Positions 17,689 through 25,194 are shown, counted from the first letter of the whole stretch. The stretch is DNA of 63,568 bases, filler included, from an uncultured Methanoregulaceae archaeon (GCA_964530035.1; 14 parts of 14 records of this genome joined end to end with filler, not necessarily neighbours in it), one strand, 5' to 3'. Made by a program: numbers and translations. Notes: a model not told the origin generated them from the letters alone.

Positions 17689-19204
17689 TGTCCTCCCTGG
17701 GATCGCTTCCGTTCCCCTTCCTCTCGGTCTTCTGGGAGATGTCAAGACGTTTTCCATCCCGTTCGAGCCCGACGATATCTGAAAACCGTTCCAGGATCTG
17801 CCCGATGACGAGGGAGAGCAGGGTTTCCTTGTCGCTTACCCGGGCGAAGTATCGGAGCGGGATCGTTGCCGCCGCCATGTTTGCGTGTCCGCCGGCATCC
17901 CCTATCTCCCCGAAAGCTTCTGAGAAGACGTTCCCGATATGGAGCCGCAGGTCGCGGTTCCGGGCCGAGATGATAATGGCGGTCTCTGTTATCCCGTATA
18001 CCAGGGCGGTGTTGACTCCTTCCAGGTTTATAAGGAGGTCCGCCGCCTGGGGGAGGGCGTCGCGGTTCCTGACATACCCGACATCGGAGAAGAGATACCC
18101 GCTTATGACCCGGCGGTTCGTGATCGCGGTCCCGAGGACGTCAAGGGTCTCCATGGACAGCGAGGGGGAGATGATCTTGTCGAGGAGGTCGGAGTCGGAG
18201 AGGGGGAGGAGAAACCCGGCATTGCAAAGGTCATCAGGGGTCACACCCCTCCGGAAGTCCTTGGTATCGGAACGAATCCCGTAGAGGAGCCCGGTGGCGA
18301 CCTTCCGGTCAAGGGGAATGCCGAGTTCGCGCACATACTCGGTAAGGATGCTCGCCGTGGCTCCGAGCCCGGAACGGAGGTCTACGAACTCCGGTTCAGG
18401 ACCCGTGTGCTGGCCGTTTGAATGGTGGTCAATGACGATGTCAACCCTGGCACCCGGTGAAAGGCCGTTGTTCACCCCGGGAGCCGGACTGTCCACAAGG
18501 GCGAAGTACTGGCATTCGGCCAGCGATGCCGGGCTTAACCGCTCCATCCTGATGTCGAGGAGGTTCACGAGTGTCCTGTTTTCCTGGTGGCCGATGGTGC
18601 CGTCATAGAAAATCCGGGTCTTCAGGCGGTCGGAGCCTGCGATCCTGGCGATCGCCGAGAGGGCAAGGGCGCTTGATATGGCGTCGGGGTCCGGGTTGTT
18701 GTGTGTTATGATGCCCAGCGTCCCCTCGTACCCGTTCAGGAGGGAGAAAAGACGCTTCGACATCCGGGAGATGTGGAGTTTTTTAATCTCTGTCACAGCC
18801 GCCCTTGCCACGACGAGCTGGGGATAAAGGACAAGGTCGGCACCTTCGGACTCCATGAGGCTGGCCGAAAGGGAGTCTGCCGCGCGGACCACAACATGGG
18901 CTGCGGGGCATGCCGCCTTTATCGTCCTTAATGCTGCCAGGTTTGCTTCAGGGTCGTCGCTTAAAATAAAGACTATGTCAAAGACCGGGATGTCCCTCAG
19001 GAGGTCAGGGCTCCTGATGTCCCGCAACCGGGTGTCGAACTGCTCGTCACGGAGTTCCTGGACGCGCTTTTCATCCCGTTCAAGGATAAGGACGCTCTTC
19101 TGCTCATCCACGAGCTCGCGGAGTACGTGGTAACCGGTGCTGCCGCACCCGCAGATCAGGTACTTGGCCCTCCTGTCCCTGGCTGGCTGCGTCCCCTCCT
19201 GCAT
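17675..19204 (-). CDS. RCK_N (TrkA-N)-DHH-DHHA1 phosphoesterase
   Basis: GCGSTG Rossmann motif, HNNPDPDA, IDHH, GIRSDT, AGGH. Confidence 0.88.
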   Translation of the reverse strand: MQEGTQPARDRRAKYLICGCGSTGYHVLRELVDEQKSVLILERDEKRVQELRDEQFDTRLRDIRSPDLLRDIPVFDIVFILSDDPEANLAALRTIKAACPAAHVVVRAADSLSASLMESEGADLVLYPQLVVARAAVTEIKKLHISRMSKRLFSLLNGYEGTLGIITHNNPDPDAISSALALSAIARIAGSDRLKTRIFYDGTIGHQENRTLVNLLDIRMERLSPASLAECQYFALVDSPAPGVNNGLSPGARVDIVIDHHSNGQHTGPEPEFVDLRSGLGATASILTEYVRELGIPLDRKVATGLLYGIRSDTKDFRRGVTPDDLCNAGFLLPLSDSDLLDKIISPSLSMETLDVLGTAITNRRVISGYLFSDVGYVRNRDALPQAADLLINLEGVNTALVYGITETAIIISARNRDLRLHIGNVFSEAFGEIGDAGGHANMAAATIPLRYFARVSDKETLLSLVIGQILERFSDIVGLERDGKRLDISQKTERKGNGSDPREDNGVL

Positions 19205-19317
19205 ACTATCGTTTTTACCCGCATCTCCTATTAAATGCGTGACGCCAGGCAGCACGTGGTGGCGGATATTGAATCGAAACCTTTATTCGAATCGCAAAAC
19301 CACAGAATAAGGCACAC

Positions 19318-19369
19318 GGGCTTGTAGCTTAGTTCGGAAGAGCGACGGACTCTTAATCCGTAGGTCAAG
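19318..19369 (+). tRNA. tRNA-Lys(CTT), 3' truncated at the contig end
   Basis: GGGCTTGTAGCTTAG..; anticodon arm ACGGA-CTCTTAA-TCCGT. Confidence 0.9.
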
Positions 19370-19469
19370 NNNNNNNNNNNNNNNNNNNNNNNNNNNNNNN
19401 NNNNNNNNNNNNNTTAATTAATTAANNNNNNNNNNNNNNNNNNNNNNNNNNNNNNNNNNNNNNNNNNNN

Positions 19470-20726
19470 GTACAACCTGCAGAGCAGCTTTACCAGGGTT
19501 GTCTTTCCCGAACCGTTCTCTCCGACGAGGGCCACGGTCCGGCCCCGGGGAATGGCAAGACTGATATCGGAGAGGGCGGCCTGGTCCGACCCGGGATACC
19601 TGAAGGAAACGTGGTCGAAACGGATCTCATCCTGGATCGGGGCGGGGAACGGTTTCGGGCGTTCCGGCTCCCTGATCCCAGGGGTGATATCAAGGAATTC
19701 GTAGAGGCTCGTCAGGAAAATCGCGTCTTCATACAGCCCGGCCACACCGGTAAGAAGCGTATTCATGAAGGCCTGGCTCTGCTGGATAATCCCGAAATAG
19801 AAGACCAGGTCTCCGACCGAGATGCTGCCCTGGACAGCCCGGTACACTACGACAGCGAGTGCGATGAAGAGGCCAAGGACGGCAAGGGACTGGGCTGCAA
19901 GGTCAGCACCAACTCTCTTCGCCGATATATCGAGGTACTCCCGGCGCAGCTCCCTCCGGAGGTCCTTGTATCTCCCCTTGAACCGTGGGCCAAGGTTGAA
20001 GAGCCTGATCTCCTTTGCATGGCTGTCACTGGTGAGCATCCAGTGGTAATACCAGCTCCGGCGTTCCTTCGGGGTCCTGCTGCGCCTCCAGGAGTACAGC
20101 CTGCCGGCATACTTCCAGCGTATGTAGGCGACAGGGATGATGGCCAGGAGGAGGACCACTGCGAGGACCCAGCTGAAGGAGATCAGGATAACCGCTATGG
20201 CTGCCAGCGTGACCGTACTCTGTCCTACCTGGACGAGTCCGTTCACGATACGGGTGGGACGGACCGGCGCCTCCATCTGCGCCCGGTAAAAGGTGTCATA
20301 ATACGCGGGGTTTTCATAGTATTCCAGGTCTACCTCGACGGATTTTGCATGCATGACGTCCTGGACGTGGTCGGTGGTGAGTGCGGACTGGACCTCGCTG
20401 ACATGCATAGAGAGCGACCGGGTAACCACAGTAGCCAGGCTTGTCCCGCACAGGAGGGCTATCAGGACAATAACGGGGATAAACGCCTCCTGCATCGTAC
20501 CGGACGCTATCGCGGCCGTGACCGCATCGATGATGAGTTTCAACAGGTATAATGAGACCAGAGGCAGGATTCCCTGCAGGACAACAAGGACCGAGCCCGC
20601 TACCGTCCATCCCGGGGCACTTTCCCATACGAGGGCCACCGCCCTCCGGAGGGTGAGGAACGTGTCAAGTTTCCTGTGAAGGCCATGAATTCCCGGCGTG
20701 GTCCTGGTTTCCTCTCCGGAGCTCAT
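19470..20726 (-). CDS. ABC exporter, fused permease and ATPase (lasso cluster D-type), 3' truncated
   Basis: N-terminal TM helices, AKEIRLF, Walker [10 protein letters not shown]. Confidence 0.9.
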
Positions 20727-20851
20727 CTCATTTCACCCTTCCCGTCTCCTGTCATGGCCGGCTGATCCCTAACCTCTCTACCATTACCTCATCAGCATTT
20801 CCTTTTGAAAATGTCCGTTTTGCTGGGAAACGGACAAATAGGGTCTGGTCA

Positions 20852-21838
20852 TCACAACCCCGCGAGATCCTCGAGAATGGCCTCGTCCACCTGTCGGAGG
20901 TGCTTAAACCCGGACGGATAGTACAGGCGTCGCATGGGGACCTGCACCACCAGGCGCCCAAAAAACATCATCCTCTGCACCTCCAGCCCGAGTGCCTCGA
21001 CGATTGAAATTGAAAACGAGTTCCGGACAAGCTCGATAAGGGCATCCCTTGGCGGGACCGGCTCGATGAGTATATCATCAGAACTTTCCTGCCGTCTTGG
21101 AAGATAAAGGGCCTTTATCGGTTGCTTTGTGTTGCAAAAGGTCCCGAATCCCTCCTCTCCGACAGGAACCCGGCGTTTGTCGAACCAGGGATGTACTATC
21201 TCCAGGTCATTATGTCGTCCCAGGAAGAACCGTGCCTCGTCGGGCCACATCCGCATGCAGGGATACCCGGGCCTGCAGAAAAACGTGCCATTGGACTCCT
21301 CCACGGGCATGATGTCGTCGGTCAGGAGAGCGTAGCCCTGTTGCACGAGTGATGCCGCAAGAGTACTTTTCCCGCCCTTGTTCGTTGACAGGAAACCGAC
21401 AGCACCGGCATCCGTCTGCACGGCAGAGGCATGGATTGCCGGGATACCATGCTTTTCGAGCCAGAGTGAGAGTACCTCCCCGAGCAGGAGGATCTCCACG
21501 AGGAATTCATAGTCAGGGTCCTGCACACAAGCGTCAATGTGGTCGTCGAACAGGTAGAAATCAACGGTCCGTGTAAAACGGACGACATCGCATTCTCCCG
21601 TCCTGTAGATCACCTGGAGGGGTTCACCGTCTTCAAGAACAGACCCCGAACGATAGACCGGTTTTGTACCCTTCCAGTCATCAGGGACCGGGGGGTTGTC
21701 AACCACGTTAAACCGGACATCAGGTTTACCGGATCCCTTGACAAACCTGTTTTTAAACGGATAGTCGCTTGCTAGAGTCAGCCCATAGAGCGTGTGATGC
21801 CATTCCAGTCCGGAGGAAGGGCCGGTATCATGAGACAC
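20852..21838 (-). CDS. HPr-kinase-like peptide kinase (lasso tailoring kinase type)
   Basis: IHASAV, variant P-loop STNKGGKST, LLTDD; probable GTG start at 21838 after GAGGAG, overlapping the upstream stop. Confidence 0.85.
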   Translation of the reverse strand: MSHDTGPSSGLEWHHTLYGLTLASDYPFKNRFVKGSGKPDVRFNVVDNPPVPDDWKGTKPVYRSGSVLEDGEPLQVIYRTGECDVVRFTRTVDFYLFDDHIDACVQDPDYEFLVEILLLGEVLSLWLEKHGIPAIHASAVQTDAGAVGFLSTNKGGKSTLAASLVQQGYALLTDDIMPVEESNGTFFCRPGYPCMRMWPDEARFFLGRHNDLEIVHPWFDKRRVPVGEEGFGTFCNTKQPIKALYLPRRQESSDDILIEPVPPRDALIELVRNSFSISIVEALGLEVQRMMFFGRLVVQVPMRRLYYPSGFKHLRQVDEAILEDLAGL

Positions 21839-22988
21839 TGCTTGTCTCCTCGAGAATCCGCTTCTGAAGTAACAGGTCAATGAAATCCGTCACTTCAGCC
21901 TGGAGAACCTGCTTGTCTGCGTCATATTCATCGGCGAGGGCCGTGATGACCTGTCCGCGGTTGCCAAATTTCACGACGGCATTCCATATGGCCGCGGAGA
22001 CCCCGTCCAGGACATAGCTTTCACGAGAAACAGTATGCCCGATGACCACTTCTTCCCCGATGACTGCAAATATCACCTCTTTTGATGGTGCGAGCGGACC
22101 TCTGGAAACAGGCTGCACATACACTGGAATCCTGGGTGGCATGTTCTTCAGGCACCGCCTTGGGGGGAGCAGGGTCCATCCGCACTCGGTTTTTTCAGTA
22201 ACCGGGTTCCAGAACGGCCTGTCCGGTTCGTTCCAGGAGAAGCAGAGATATTCAGGCAGCCCTATCCAGAGGCGTTCATTGTCGAAACGCCCGCTCCAGG
22301 TCTTTCGGTAGGATTCTGTTCCTCCATTGACCTCATCTGAATAGTCCCCGAGGTCACGGGCACTGATACACGCGGTAACGGGGAGTCCCAGGCGTCCTGC
22401 ACGAAGTTCCGGGTGAGAATATAGTGGGGCGAATATGACCTCCTTTTGCCCACAGGACTCCATGAAAGCCGAAAAGCGCTCACCGCTGATCGCACAGTCG
22501 TCAACGACGACCAGGGGCACGTCCGGTGACCCGGGGTACTGCAGCTGCCCTGGACTGATGCCCATGATGTATGAGAGGATGCCGAGGACGATGAGACCCC
22601 CGCGGGGGAGGGCATTGAAGGAGCACCTTTGAATTTTGTCATCACCAAGGTGTTCCCTGAACCGGGCTCCAAGTACCCGGCAGTCCTCGACAGCCTGCGG
22701 AAAATTGACATATCTCAGGTGGCGGAGAGCATAATCTACGTGCCACGAAAGAGCGCGTATACGGGCCGTTTCTACCTTGTTATACCTCCCGACAACTGCA
22801 ATAGTTGGGGGATTTATATGCACTACGATAGCTGAGGGGGGCATTGAGGACCAGAGGGGGCTCGATGCAATTCCCTGGGCAAGCTCTAGGAGGGGAGTCT
22901 CGCAATCCGGGCACACCTGATTATGGTAAGACTCAGTTCCACTTAGTTTGGCAATGATAATATGAAAATCCAAATCTGAATTGTTCAC
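21828..22988 (-). CDS. Phosphoribosyltransferase-like domain fused to a C-terminal PqqD/RRE (RiPP recognition element)
   Basis: ALPRGG and PRPP-loop-like VVVDDCAISG; C-terminal YVLDGVSAAIW...LADEYD...DFIDLL matches the PqqD/RRE pattern. Confidence 0.75.
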   Translation of the reverse strand: MNNSDLDFHIIIAKLSGTESYHNQVCPDCETPLLELAQGIASSPLWSSMPPSAIVVHINPPTIAVVGRYNKVETARIRALSWHVDYALRHLRYVNFPQAVEDCRVLGARFREHLGDDKIQRCSFNALPRGGLIVLGILSYIMGISPGQLQYPGSPDVPLVVVDDCAISGERFSAFMESCGQKEVIFAPLYSHPELRAGRLGLPVTACISARDLGDYSDEVNGGTESYRKTWSGRFDNERLWIGLPEYLCFSWNEPDRPFWNPVTEKTECGWTLLPPRRCLKNMPPRIPVYVQPVSRGPLAPSKEVIFAVIGEEVVIGHTVSRESYVLDGVSAAIWNAVVKFGNRGQVITALADEYDADKQVLQAEVTDFIDLLLQKRILEETSSVS

Positions 22989-23037
22989 AAAAAGAACCTT
23001 GTAGCTTCAGGAATTGTTCCATTAAAATGATATAAGC

Positions 23038-23046
23038 AAAAAAAAG
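23038..23046 (-). terminator. Oligo-T archaeal terminator candidate after precursor A1
   Basis: Run of 9 T on the minus strand about 40 nt after the A1 stop. Confidence 0.45.
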
Positions 23047-23085
23047 AATTCCTGTTCTCGCTCCCCTATTTGAAATGCATTAATT

Positions 23086-23268
23086 TTAATCCCGATAAGG
23101 TAGATCATTCGGAGTCGGAGTCTGCTGAACCTCCATTCCTGTTGGCCGATATGGATCGAACGAACCTGCACCGCCAGAGTCATTATAAACCCCAGTTCCA
23201 CCAAGCGTCAGATCCTTCACATTGCCTACTTTCACCAGTTCTGGTGATTCATACGTTCCTTTCTTCAT
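23086..23268 (-). CDS. Lasso peptide precursor A1 (22-aa leader, 38-aa core)
   Basis: Leader YESPEL (YxxPxL), G...LT with Thr at -2; core starts Gly1 with Asp8; purine-rich RBS GGGAAGGA upstream. Confidence 0.88.
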   Translation of the reverse strand: MKKGTYESPELVKVGNVKDLTLGGTGVYNDSGGAGSFDPYRPTGMEVQQTPTPNDLPYRD

Positions 23269-23359
23269 AAAATCCTTCCCCTAATTCATCTTTTAATAAC
23301 AATTAAATGAACGGTTTCCAGAAATAAATAAGTTGCTCAGCACCATTGACTTTACTTTT

Positions 23360-23504
23360 TCAGCCCTTCTCCCCTTCATATGATCTGGCACTGCCAAGGT
23401 CCTGATAGGGACCTTTATTCCCAAGGGTAAGGTCCTTCACATCGCCACCTTCCACCACTTCAGGATATTTAAATGCCTTTTTATTTGACTCAATCCTTTT
23501 CCAT
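23360..23504 (-). CDS. Lasso peptide precursor A2 (not in the ORF track; start codon is out of frame or non-canonical)
   Basis: Hand translation of 23494->23360: IESNKKAFKYPEVVEGGDVKDLTL-GNKGPYQDLGSARSYEGEKG*; ATG at 23504 is one base out of frame. Confidence 0.75.
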
Positions 23505-23612
23505 ATCTTTAGGAAAAGGTAGCACTTCCCCCCTCCTGATTTAAATAGTAAATAAATTTAGCATGGCTCTCCCTGATGCGAATGCCGTTTCCCAGACAAA
23601 GGTAATCTCATT

Positions 23613-24086
23613 TTATGTTAGCTCATTCACCTCCTCACCCGGGATCCTGCCGAACCGTTTTTCATATCCGCGTAACCATGCCTCGGCACAGAGAAAGCGG
23701 ACCAGAGGCCGGGCGGGGTAGCCCGTCCCATCGAGGTAAGATTTCCAGGCCTGTTCCAGGGGTTGCTGCCTGACAAGACCCAGCCTGACCGCACCCGGTT
23801 CCTGGAGCAGTGCCTCGGCCCGGTCTTTCTCTCCGGATTTCAGGCCCCGGTCCTGCAGGTCACCGGCATGGGCCTTCGAGAGCCGCGTCCTGATCTTCTC
23901 CGGCACCATTCCCTTCATCGCCTCCCTGAGCTGGCAACGGGTAACCCCGTCCCTGAAGGTGAGTCGAGGCGGCATCATGACCATGAAATCTATCAGCCTC
24001 CGGTCATAGAAGGGAAAACGCCATTCAACCCCTGTTGAGGAGGCATACGTGTCCAGGGTCACCCGGTACGCCGAGTTAAGGCCGTC
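23613..24086 (-). CDS. C-terminal part of an asparagine-synthetase-like lasso cyclase (C protein), 5' truncated
   Basis: EWRFPFYDRRLIDF..MP, LREAMKGMVPEKIRTR.SKA; directly upstream of the precursors. Confidence 0.8.
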   Translation of the reverse strand, partial: DGLNSAYRVTLDTYASSTGVEWRFPFYDRRLIDFMVMMPPRLTFRDGVTRCQLREAMKGMVPEKIRTRLSKAHAGDLQDRGLKSGEKDRAEALLQEPGAVRLGLVRQQPLEQAWKSYLDGTGYPARPLVRFLCAEAWLRGYEKRFGRIPGEEVNELT

Positions 24087-24186
24087 NNNNNNNNNNNNNN
24101 NNNNNNNNNNNNNNNNNNNNNNNNNNNNNNTTAATTAATTAANNNNNNNNNNNNNNNNNNNNNNNNNNNNNNNNNNNNNNNNNNNN

Positions 24187-25194
24187 ACCCCCATCATGAT
24201 CGGCCACATGAGCTACGGGGCCATCAGCCTCAATGCCCAGATGAGCCTCGCGAGGGCGGTTTCGGAAACCGGGACATTCATGGGGACCGGTGAAGGCGGG
24301 CTCCACGAGCTCCTGTACCCGTACCAGGACCACATGATCGTCCAGGTAGCATCAGGCCGGTTCGGGGTGAACATCGATTACCTTGAACGGGGAGCCGCCA
24401 TCGAGATCAAGATCGGCCAGGGGGCGAAACCAGGGATCGGCGGTCACCTCCCCGGGGAGAAGGTCTGCCTCGATGTCTCCTGCACGAGGATGATCCCCGA
24501 GGGGAGCGATGCCATCAGCCCCGCACCCCACCATGACATCTACAGCATCGAGGACCTGAAGCAGCTGGTCCGCAGCCTCAAGGAGGCTACTGAGTGGAAA
24601 AAGCCGGTGTTCGTGAAGATCGCCGCGGTCCACAACGCTGCCGCGATTGCTGCCGGGATAGCGCGGTCGTCGGCCGATGCCGTCGTCATCGACGGCTTCA
24701 GGGGCGGGACGGGTGCCGCCCCGAGAGTCTTCAGGGACCATGTCGGCATCCCTGTCGAGGCCGCGATCGCTGCCGTCGACTCAAAACTCAGGAAACAGGG
24801 GATACGAAACGAGGTCTCACTGATCGCAAGCGGAGGTCTCCGCGAGAGTGCGGATGTCGTCAAGGCGATTGCACTCGGTGCTGACGCCGTATATATCGGA
24901 ACGGCAGCCCTTGTTGCCATGGGCTGCCGGGTCTGCGGGACCTGTTACCGCGGTCTGTGCCCCTGGGGTATTGCGACCCAACGTCCCGACCTCGTACAAC
25001 GGCTCGACACGGAACAGGCGTCCGCCCAGGTCTCCAACCTGCTCCATGCCTGGACACTCGAGATCAGCGAACTGATGGGTGCAGCGGGGATCAACAGCAT
25101 AGAAAGCCTCCGCGGCAACCGTGACCGGCTTCGCGGCTACCTCCTGGACGAATCCATCATGAAGGTCCTTGACGTGAAAGGAATAGGAGCGTGA
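24187..25194 (+). CDS. gltB: Archaeal glutamate synthase FMN-binding subunit (GltB domain 2), 5' truncated
   Basis: MSYGAIS, TGEGG, QVASGRFGV, EIKIGQGAKPG.GGHLPG.KV, SPAPHHDIYSIEDL and a Cys cluster. Confidence 0.93.
   Translation, partial: TPIMIGHMSYGAISLNAQMSLARAVSETGTFMGTGEGGLHELLYPYQDHMIVQVASGRFGVNIDYLERGAAIEIKIGQGAKPGIGGHLPGEKVCLDVSCTRMIPEGSDAISPAPHHDIYSIEDLKQLVRSLKEATEWKKPVFVKIAAVHNAAAIAAGIARSSADAVVIDGFRGGTGAAPRVFRDHVGIPVEAAIAAVDSKLRKQGIRNEVSLIASGGLRESADVVKAIALGADAVYIGTAALVAMGCRVCGTCYRGLCPWGIATQRPDLVQRLDTEQASAQVSNLLHAWTLEISELMGAAGINSIESLRGNRDRLRGYLLDESIMKVLDVKGIGA

Follow-up and report, generated by a model that had tools for sequence, protein, structure and literature searches.

A lasso peptide gene cluster split over three contigs

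The window analysed here is a stretch of 63,568 bases in which 14 contigs of a single archaeal bin (C175 to C191, sorted by size) have been joined by N44-TTAATTAATTAA-N44. Twenty-six runs of 44 N flank the TTAATTAATTAA spacers (examples of spacers lie at 19370-19469 and 24087-24186) and, as the window is composed of separate contigs, genes on either side of a spacer are not genomic neighbours. The bin comprises 229 contigs with a total length of 2.36 Mb and is 86.25% complete and 0.03% contaminated. Our subject is a set of lasso peptide biosynthesis genes at positions 19470-24086, which correspond exactly to contig C180 (4617 bp). On its minus strand C180 carries, in order, the C-terminal fragment of a cyclase gene, two precursor sequences (A2, then A1), a gene in which a phosphoribosyltransferase (PRTase)-fold domain is fused to a RiPP recognition element (RRE; RiPP, a peptide made on the ribosome and modified post-translationally), an HprK-like kinase gene and a truncated ABC exporter gene. 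All six genes listed in an earlier, sequence-only reading of this DNA are thus present, on the strand and in the order given there. No tRNA gene was found by ARAGORN in 19000-24200.

That reading had taken the genes for a lasso peptide cluster, and profile searches bear this out: A1 passes NF033521, the B2 peptidase passes both NF033537 and PF13471, and NF033535 is the best model for the cyclase. We consider it highly probable that C180 is part of a complete class-II-type lasso cluster of a Methanomicrobiales methanogen, split over contigs C219, C180 and C209, with a leader-guided tailoring pathway deduced for it. The gene identities, synteny and archaeal location rest on computed results, and all the chemical steps proposed below are drawn from homology.

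The cyclase fragment on C180 (23613..24086, minus strand) encodes the C-terminal 157 amino acids of the protein, matches PF00733 with 73 bits against a cut-off of 21 (4.6e-20; profile positions 226-354 of 354) and has the lasso cyclase family NF033535 as its best NCBIfam model. The N-terminal 472 amino acids are encoded on C219 (1206-2621, plus strand), a 2623-bp contig outside the window that was found by searching the bin with PF13471 (one strong match) and PF00733 (the cyclase N-terminus), and on which the reading frame runs to the contig end. The protein starts MSGIGG rather than Met-Cys and therefore lacks the glutaminase Cys, while the SGGLDS PP-loop is kept. NF033535 scores 358 bits with the C219 part and 413 bits with the full-length protein of a relative, against 170-216 bits for the AsnB model TIGR01536 (170 for the C219 part). 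Absence of the nucleophile Cys and a lasso cyclase score about twice that of AsnB together agree with the earlier assignment of this protein as a lasso-type cyclase rather than an ordinary, glutaminase-bearing AsnB.

The same contig carries the B2 peptidase gene, which the sequence-only reading had expected to lie beyond an edge of C180. B2 (147 amino acids, C219:766-1209) scores 100.3 bits with NF033537 (cut-off 33) and 81.4 bits with PF13471 (cut-off 26), with Cys, His and Asp within the motifs TCL, AHAW and EIDG. Located beside it are the cyclase N-terminus and a gene for a stand-alone RRE protein, B1 (97 amino acids, C219:492-785), that overlaps the B2 start and whose Methanolinea orthologue passes PF05402 (63.5 against 23.4). 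B1 is in turn adjoined by the N-terminal part of an AglB/STT3 gene on the minus strand (C219:2-340). At the other end of C180, the ABC exporter gene (D; 19470..20726, minus strand) encodes 419 amino acids comprising the transmembrane domain and the start of the ATPase (ABC_membrane and ABC_tran) and is truncated by the contig end at the Walker A motif. The remaining 213 amino acids are found on C209 (3088-2447, minus strand), and the exporter is 64-70% identical to the 612-residue exporter of a Methanolinea cluster described below. In all six enzyme and transporter genes the frames are open and the catalytic motifs intact.

C180 and C209 overlap at their ends by 54 nt, of which 53 are identical. 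By comparing the two cyclase parts with the full 635-residue cyclase of a relative in the same genus (locus L013), we estimate the gap between C219 and C180 at about six residues. The deduced gene order is AglB (divergent), then B1, B2, cyclase (C), A2, A1, PRTase-RRE fusion, kinase and ABC exporter. The exact C180 stretch is present in 14 DNA runs from six studies, any of which may be the source sample; the runs derive from wastewater, anaerobic digesters, bioreactor sludge and biogas fermenters. In run X9, contigs of 20.9 kb and 20.7 kb reach beyond both ends of the stretch.

A further contig, C7 (29.5 kb), ends in the C-terminal part of an AglB gene, precisely at the point where the AglB of C219 starts, and was considered as a neighbour of C219. 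The 149-nt overlap (about 29366-29514 of C7 against C219:1-148) is only 82.5% identical, and the join was rejected on this account as involving a paralogue or a second population. The C7 version matches the cluster-adjacent AglB of the same-genus relative at 49 of 50 residues, the C219 version matches that of C7 at 42 of 49, and further AglB fragments are found on C92 and C98. This points to the AglB copies in the bin being paralogues or deriving from two populations. Downstream of the exporter, positions 689-2247 of C209 encode a 203-residue HExxH membrane protein (site-2-protease-like by motif only) and a 326-residue methyltransferase-like open reading frame (ORF); the Methanolinea locus has other genes at this place.

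One canonical precursor and one without a canonical start

The A1 gene (23086..23268, minus strand) encodes a 60-residue precursor that scores 28.5 bits with NF033521 against a cut-off of 19. Its 22-residue leader contains YESPEL, matching the YxxPxL motif, and has Thr at position -2 (DLT-L). The 38-residue core starts GGTGVYND, has Gly1, Asp8 and Ser14-Phe15, and ends in Asp; A1 can be aligned with 12 other precursors. The A1 core of the same-genus relative has 37 residues. Neither A2 nor the Methanolinea precursors have anything corresponding to the Pro/Thr-rich extension beyond residue 20 of the A1 core. Other cores in the family mostly have 15-29 residues, with cyanobacterial and a few other bacterial cores reaching 34-56.

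A2 (about 23360..23497, minus strand) shows homology to A1 across the leader and on through the ring. Its leader remnant, FKYPEVV...DVKDLTL, shows Tyr-to-Phe and Leu-to-Val changes in the YxxPxL motif, and its 20-residue core (GNKGPYQD...) has Gly1 and Asp8, Ser14-Tyr15 and a C-terminal Gly. The only in-frame start is a GTG within the leader. The region is also covered by DNA contigs from runs X1 and X9, for which no difference is listed, so that a mistake confined to this assembly is an unlikely cause of the lost start. Two precursors had been proposed from the sequence; A1 stands as a canonical one, whereas A2 is precursor-like and lacks a canonical start.

To place these cores within the wider family, an iterated profile search was made of small ORFs in the window and at 72 loci with a homologue of the fusion gene, giving 55 matches that reduce to 52 unique locus/core pairs. 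Thr at -2 is present in 51/52 of these precursor candidates and Asp or Glu at core positions 7-9 in 49/52. Position 14 is Ser or Thr in 27/52, with Gly13 followed by Ser/Thr14 in 20/52, and in the archaeal cores Ser14 is followed by Tyr or Phe in six out of six. A C-terminal Ser is found in only five of the 52.

A hint of A1 transcription comes from contigs of two metatranscriptome libraries belonging to two studies. X18 covers 23050-23270 (221 nt) and X20 covers 22980-23130 (151 nt); both are centred on A1 and neither differs from C180. No other part of the 4.6-kb stretch appears in the RNA contigs, the libraries being small and so uninformative for the other genes. A run of eight T on the minus strand (23038..23045) lies 41-48 nt downstream of the A1 stop codon; X18 stops 5 nt before it, at 23050, and X20 reads through. 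The run might conceivably act as an archaeal oligo-T terminator or attenuator, and the pattern fits an A1 transcript more abundant than the enzyme messages.

The PRTase-RRE fusion and the HprK-like kinase

The fusion gene (21828..22988, minus strand) encodes a protein of 386 residues, with the PRTase-fold domain at about 90-300 and the RRE at about 300-380. The RRE is recognised by PF05402 (residues 315-379, 41.5 bits against 23.4). In an AlphaFold2 (AF2) model with a mean predicted local distance difference test (pLDDT) score of 83.7, Foldseek matches the C-terminal domain to complexes of TbiB1 with leader peptide (template modelling (TM) score 0.83-0.87, 25-31% identity) and the middle of the protein to the type I PRTases XGPRT, HGPRT and APRT (E 3e-5 to 1e-3, 14-22% identity). 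The two motifs expected of a 5-phosphoribosyl pyrophosphate (PRPP) site, PRGG as the pyrophosphate (PPi) loop and DDCxx(S/T)GxR as the PRPP loop, occur without variation in 64/64 aligned family members, and are followed by a block, CF-WNEPD...W...C-KN, that is conserved in 52 to 63 of the 64 sequences per position. At 22396-22452, DNA contigs from X1 and X9 differ from C180 by nine substitutions and a 6-nt insertion, and relatives carry two extra residues at this site; this probably reflects strain variation at this spot or, alternatively, a mixed local assembly.

A model of the fusion in complex with A1 scores 0.83 against 0.01 for the best control, and the mark used is one reached by 116/157 solved complexes and by 2/215 mismatched pairs. 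Contacts agree by at least 65% between runs, with a partner pLDDT of 51-52. In the model, leader residues 3-21 lie on RRE strand 317-327, on the RRE helices and on the N-terminal strand 5-14. The model supports binding of the A1 leader by the fusion, although because TbiB1-leader complexes are solved the pass may reflect no more than likeness to them. The fusion RRE is 25% identical to B1 over 56 residues. With a separate B1 encoded on C219, the fusion is a second RRE protein, with a predicted tailoring role, and not B1 itself: a PRTase/RRE fusion gene is present, as had been read from the sequence, but it does not supply the only RRE of the pathway.

The kinase gene (20852..21880, minus strand) has an annotated TTG start overlapping the end of the fusion gene and encodes a 342-residue P-loop kinase of the HprK/phosphoenolpyruvate carboxykinase (PEPCK) fold. 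Its motif H-A-S...GGKS...LLTDD is kept in 12 sequences. A search of the PDB by sequence gave chance-level matches only (E >= 0.44). In the AF2 model (pLDDT 90.4), VIA-align superposes the whole kinase on PEPCK (Z 17.0, 274 aligned residues, root-mean-square deviation (rmsd) 4.9) and residues 146-342 on the HPr kinase/phosphorylase 3tqf_B (Z 13.8, 139/150 residues, rmsd 2.8). The kinase shares only fold and motif with HPr(Ser) kinase/phosphorylase proper and does not reach the curated scores; the earlier description of it as HPr-kinase-like holds on the strength of the fold match and of the P-loop and DD motifs.

Archaeal location of the cluster

The nearest relative of the fusion protein (74% identity) is encoded on a 5226-bp contig of an uncultured Methanospirillaceae archaeon from the same genus as the bin, which carries AglB, B1, B2, the full cyclase gene, two precursors, the fusion gene and the start of the kinase gene. 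At 49% identity, the second-nearest is encoded on a Methanolinea sp. contig of 657,739 bp, on which AglB (868 amino acids, carrying the archaeal domain AglB_L1) is followed in order by B1, B2, C, two precursors, fusion, kinase and ABC exporter. Gene order is thus conserved across two Methanomicrobiales families at about 50% protein identity. Scanning 30 of the 55 larger ORFs in 80 kb around the Methanolinea cluster revealed, within 40 kb, matches to Orc1/Cdc6, XerA_Arch, a Trm5b/Taw-type tRNA methyltransferase and Dph6_archaeal (277 bits against 197). Tetranucleotide distances to the bin mean are ordinary for both C180 (rank 12 of 83) and C219 (rank 26 of 42) among contigs of similar size.

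The shared order on the contigs of relatives, the archaeal genes flanking one of them and the typical tetranucleotide composition make misbinning unlikely. The archaeal origin that the sequence-only reading had made conditional on correct binning is in this way strengthened, with two more assemblies showing the same synteny next to AglB.

In Methanolinea, the lasso exporter gene is followed by a second RiPP-like cassette (L014:13379-16003 and L091:795-1766, on contig G061:C1) encoding two radical SAM/SPASM proteins, a PqqD-like protein and ScmC (TIGR04249, 202.6 bits against 125). By its gene content this is a predicted SynChlorMet cassette; nothing comparable was observed on C209 of the bin.

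Distribution of the fusion in archaea and bacteria

Full-length homologues of the fusion are found in two of 61 related genomes, these being the bin and the same-genus bin, and in a sample of 401 genomes from the phylum only in the bin (0/400 others). In databases at large the family is far from small: a word-indexed search gave 256 proteins, and an exhaustive one, with matches up to E 1e-30 grouped at 50% identity, gave 310 clusters. Named carriers belong to the Cyanobacteriota, Gemmatimonadota, Acidobacteriota, Chloroflexota, Actinomycetota, Rhodothermota, Pseudomonadota and others. The 72 loci mentioned above came from a scan of species genomes; a kinase gene is present at 58 of them and a cyclase gene at 50, and where at least 3 kb is available on both sides of the fusion gene (37 loci) the figures are 33 for the kinase, 31 for the cyclase and 28 for both. 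The kinase gene lies directly downstream of the fusion gene in 36 of the 58 kinase-bearing loci. The fusion-kinase module is therefore not specific to archaea and occurs widely in the lasso clusters of bacteria. A quick maximum-likelihood tree of 60 fusion sequences, rooted at the midpoint only, places the three archaeal proteins in a clade (Shimodaira-Hasegawa-like approximate likelihood ratio test (SH-aLRT) 99) amid bacterial branches, with the sister group unresolved.

B2-type peptidases scoring above the Pfam cut-off are present in 16/400 other genomes of the phylum sample and in none of the 28 from the family to which the bin belongs. Several of the archaeal B2 loci carry B1-B2-C or B1-B2-kinase-exporter arrangements. 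At three loci from another archaeal family (L094, L095 and L104), B1, B2, an HprK-like kinase (26-31% identical to that of C180) and an ABC exporter are encoded, and no PRTase-RRE fusion was found at these three. From their gene content they appear to represent a different type of archaeal lasso-like cluster with a kinase.

A proposed pathway and its alternatives

By homology with characterised lasso pathways, we propose the following sequence of events. A1 would be translated from a message that is probably transcribed above the level of the enzyme genes. The stand-alone RRE protein B1 would bind the A1 leader (YxxPxL...Thr at -2) and hand A1 to the Cys protease B2, which would cut after Thr-x, and the cyclase, lacking the glutaminase Cys, would adenylate Asp8 and close a Gly1-Asp8 macrolactam around the tail. 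Before removal of the leader, however, the RRE of the fusion would bind the same A1 leader, allowing the PRTase-fold domain to modify the core, most likely with a 5-phosphoribosyl group from PRPP and in concert with the HprK-like kinase, whose gene comes immediately after that of the fusion. For the acceptor, the leading candidate is the conserved Ser14 rather than a C-terminal Ser as in paeninodin; with the C-terminal Ser acceptor absent, Ser14 is favoured as the site. The ABC transporter would then export the product.

How likely the PRTase-fold domain is truly to transfer a phosphoribosyl group we would put somewhere from doubtful up to an even chance at the most. The full proposal can be advanced only tentatively: that the fusion is a leader-guided peptide phosphoribosyltransferase which, with the kinase, puts a phosphoribosyl or phospho-linked ribosyl group on Ser14, a modification new to RiPPs made and exported by methanogens of anaerobic digesters.

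A number of observations weigh against the cluster and pathway as set out here. The cyclase scores with NF033535 fall below the curated cut-off of 525, and the score of B1 with NF033536 (75.8 bits) is slightly below the cut-off of 80. C219 and C180 show no exact overlap and are unjoined in the assembly, so that their adjacency rests on the relatives. The A1 core (23086-23202) is long for a lasso peptide at 38 residues. In A2, DNA alignment with L013 shows that the ATG of the relative is AGG here, with one base lost. For the fusion, the PRTase profile PF24390 (PRTase-CE) reaches 14.7 bits against 27 and PF00156 was not reported (among the listed fusion relatives PF00156 is precomputed for 8/120), while the complex model with A1 leaves the core unplaced, the acceptor residue and the donor substrate being hypothetical. 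The kinase scores are likewise low: 15.6 against 33.3 with PF07475, 31.2 against 200 with TIGR04352 and 14.2 against 240 with TIGR00679. The RNA evidence consists of assembled contigs that give no information on strand or level and may stem from carried-over DNA. As to the host, PF02745 detected no mcrA in the bin (86% complete) or in either relative, and PF02249 nothing in the Methanolinea bin; the only McrG match lies at the end of a contig in the Methanolinea bin. The missing mcrA seems to be an assembly loss, the mcr operon being perhaps systematically unassembled or withheld. Because mcrA was not found, MtrA was taken as the methanogen marker; it is present in all three genomes (the bin, the same-genus relative and Methanolinea), with two adjacent copies on C11 of the bin.

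Among the alternatives, the one that fares best, though we regard it as rather unlikely, is that the PRTase-fold domain is a nucleotide- or PRPP-binding regulatory or scaffold module which brings the leader-bound precursor to the kinase, phosphorylation being the sole modification. PRTase-fold proteins that are not transferases, namely a ppGpp-binding protein (5vog) and PyrR (4p80), are included in the Foldseek matches of the fusion. An RRE is lacking in the kinase, whose gene follows that of the fusion directly at more than half of the kinase-bearing loci, and the literature searches brought to light no peptide-modifying PRTase. Position 165 of the fusion, directly after the DD motif, is an invariant Cys; ordinary PRTases have a hydrophobic residue at the equivalent site. 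Against this stand the invariance of both PRPP-site signatures in all 64 fusion sequences and the conserved block that follows them, which suits a catalytic acceptor pocket.

It is improbable that the cluster is a decaying, non-functional remnant of horizontal transfer. A2 has lost its ATG and two of the leader motif residues, and a full-length homologue of the fusion is rare, occurring in only one of 60 other related genomes and in none of the 400 others from the phylum. However, the six enzyme and transporter frames are open with their catalytic motifs intact, A1 is canonical and covered by RNA-library contigs, the identical stretch recurs in the 14 DNA runs (with the proviso on source given above), and gene order has been kept between two families at about 50% protein identity.

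A little less probable again is that the kinase phosphorylates a C-terminal Ser of the linear precursor, as for paeninodin, with the PRTase-RRE protein acting on that phosphate in the manner of the pseudomycoidin nucleotidyltransferase. Such an order of events has precedent, since in the available text of PMC8498205 lasso-cluster HprK-like kinases phosphorylate the C-terminal Ser of the linear precursor and, in the case of pseudomycoidin, sugar is attached to this phosphate by a second enzyme, and the kinase fold and P-loop motif seen here are compatible with it. Yet A1 ends in Asp and A2 in Gly, a C-terminal Ser is rare among the precursor candidates, and the conserved hydroxyl residue is the internal Ser14. 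To the last alternative, that C180 is a misbinned fragment from a bacterium in the same digester, we give hardly any credence: no archaeal marker gene is present on C180 itself, outside the Methanomicrobiales the named proteins most closely related to the fusion are bacterial and the three archaeal proteins nest among bacterial ones, but these three form a clade of their own, the cluster adjoins an archaeal-type AglB in three independent assemblies, one of them the long Methanolinea contig with its archaeal flanking genes, the tetranucleotide profile is typical of the bin, and the X9 contigs extend past both ends of C180.

Relation to known systems

Clusters of the paeninodin and pseudomycoidin type, known from the Bacillota, have A, B1, B2, C, an ABC exporter and an HprK-like tailoring kinase in common with the cluster described here, and the available text of PMC8498205 has the kinase acting on the linear precursor, with a second enzyme able to build on the first modification. 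Unlike paeninodin, the present family lacks a C-terminal Ser acceptor in all but a few members; unlike in pseudomycoidin, the place of the second enzyme is taken not by a nucleotidyltransferase but by a PRTase-fold protein that brings an RRE of its own. The kinase is also distant by sequence from the paeninodin type (31 bits with TIGR04352, against 200) and the host is archaeal.

The closest structural parallel to the RRE is TbiB1 of Thermobaculum terrenum (PDB 5V1U/5V1V), on which the C-terminal domain of the fusion superposes and whose leader complex places the leader as the modelled A1 leader is placed. TbiB1, however, is a stand-alone chaperone for B2, whereas the RRE described here forms one protein with an enzyme domain and has a separate B1 alongside it. 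With the type I purine PRTases (XGPRT, HGPRT and APRT) the fusion shares a Rossmann-like core, the PPi loop and the PRPP loop with its acidic pair and S/T-G, but at 14-22% identity and with extra conserved N-terminal and 'hood' regions. Those enzymes use a base as acceptor, while the presumed acceptor of the fusion is a peptide. A ribose-phosphate-type group on a ribosomal peptide would resemble minviopeptin, an ADP-ribosylated triceptide RiPP which, in the available text of PMC12912966, is made by an ADP-ribosyltransferase from NAD and belongs to another RiPP class; here the fold is that of a PRTase and the donor presumably PRPP. The same source, so far as its text is available, reports this ADP-ribosylated RiPP in 2026 and presents it as a breakthrough for ribosyl-type chemistry in RiPPs.

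We found no paper describing a PRTase in the biosynthesis of lasso peptides or other RiPPs, although subscription papers or the supplements of RRE surveys could hold a mention; in the main text of two RRE-survey papers, supplements apart, neither 'ribosyl' nor 'PRTase' occurs. Lasso clusters of Euryarchaeota, by contrast, are known from genome mining (available text of PMC7533575, PMC12480086 and PMC12214591). The first of these, in the part available, calls the Euryarchaeota an underexplored lasso source, citing Tietz 2017, and the last, likewise in part, limits solved lasso structures to three bacterial phyla and includes the Euryarchaeota among those with predicted ones. As archaeal lasso clusters have already been predicted in print, an archaeal cluster is in itself no new kind. 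The proposal that this is an undescribed system accordingly keeps its force for the PRTase-RRE tailoring enzyme, for which no paper was found, and loses it for the archaeal setting, with the added point that the module is widespread in bacteria.

Significance

Archaeal lasso clusters have so far been known as predictions, and the present one offers a concrete, expression-ready case, with all genes identified, a canonical precursor defined and a hint of precursor transcription in digesters. Beyond archaea, the pairing of a PRTase-RRE protein with an HprK-like kinase marks out an extensive, as yet uncharacterised branch of lasso biosynthesis, and the modifications available to RiPPs could gain a new one from the chemistry of the two enzymes. 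If the proposed phosphoribosylation is true, a Ser14 modification would be expected in hundreds of lasso clusters from at least ten phyla, the bulky group might serve as a steric plug that keeps the tail within the ring, and the product would be the first characterisable archaeal lasso peptide, from methanogens of anaerobic digesters. For these organisms, the cluster bears on methanogen competition or signalling in anaerobic communities.

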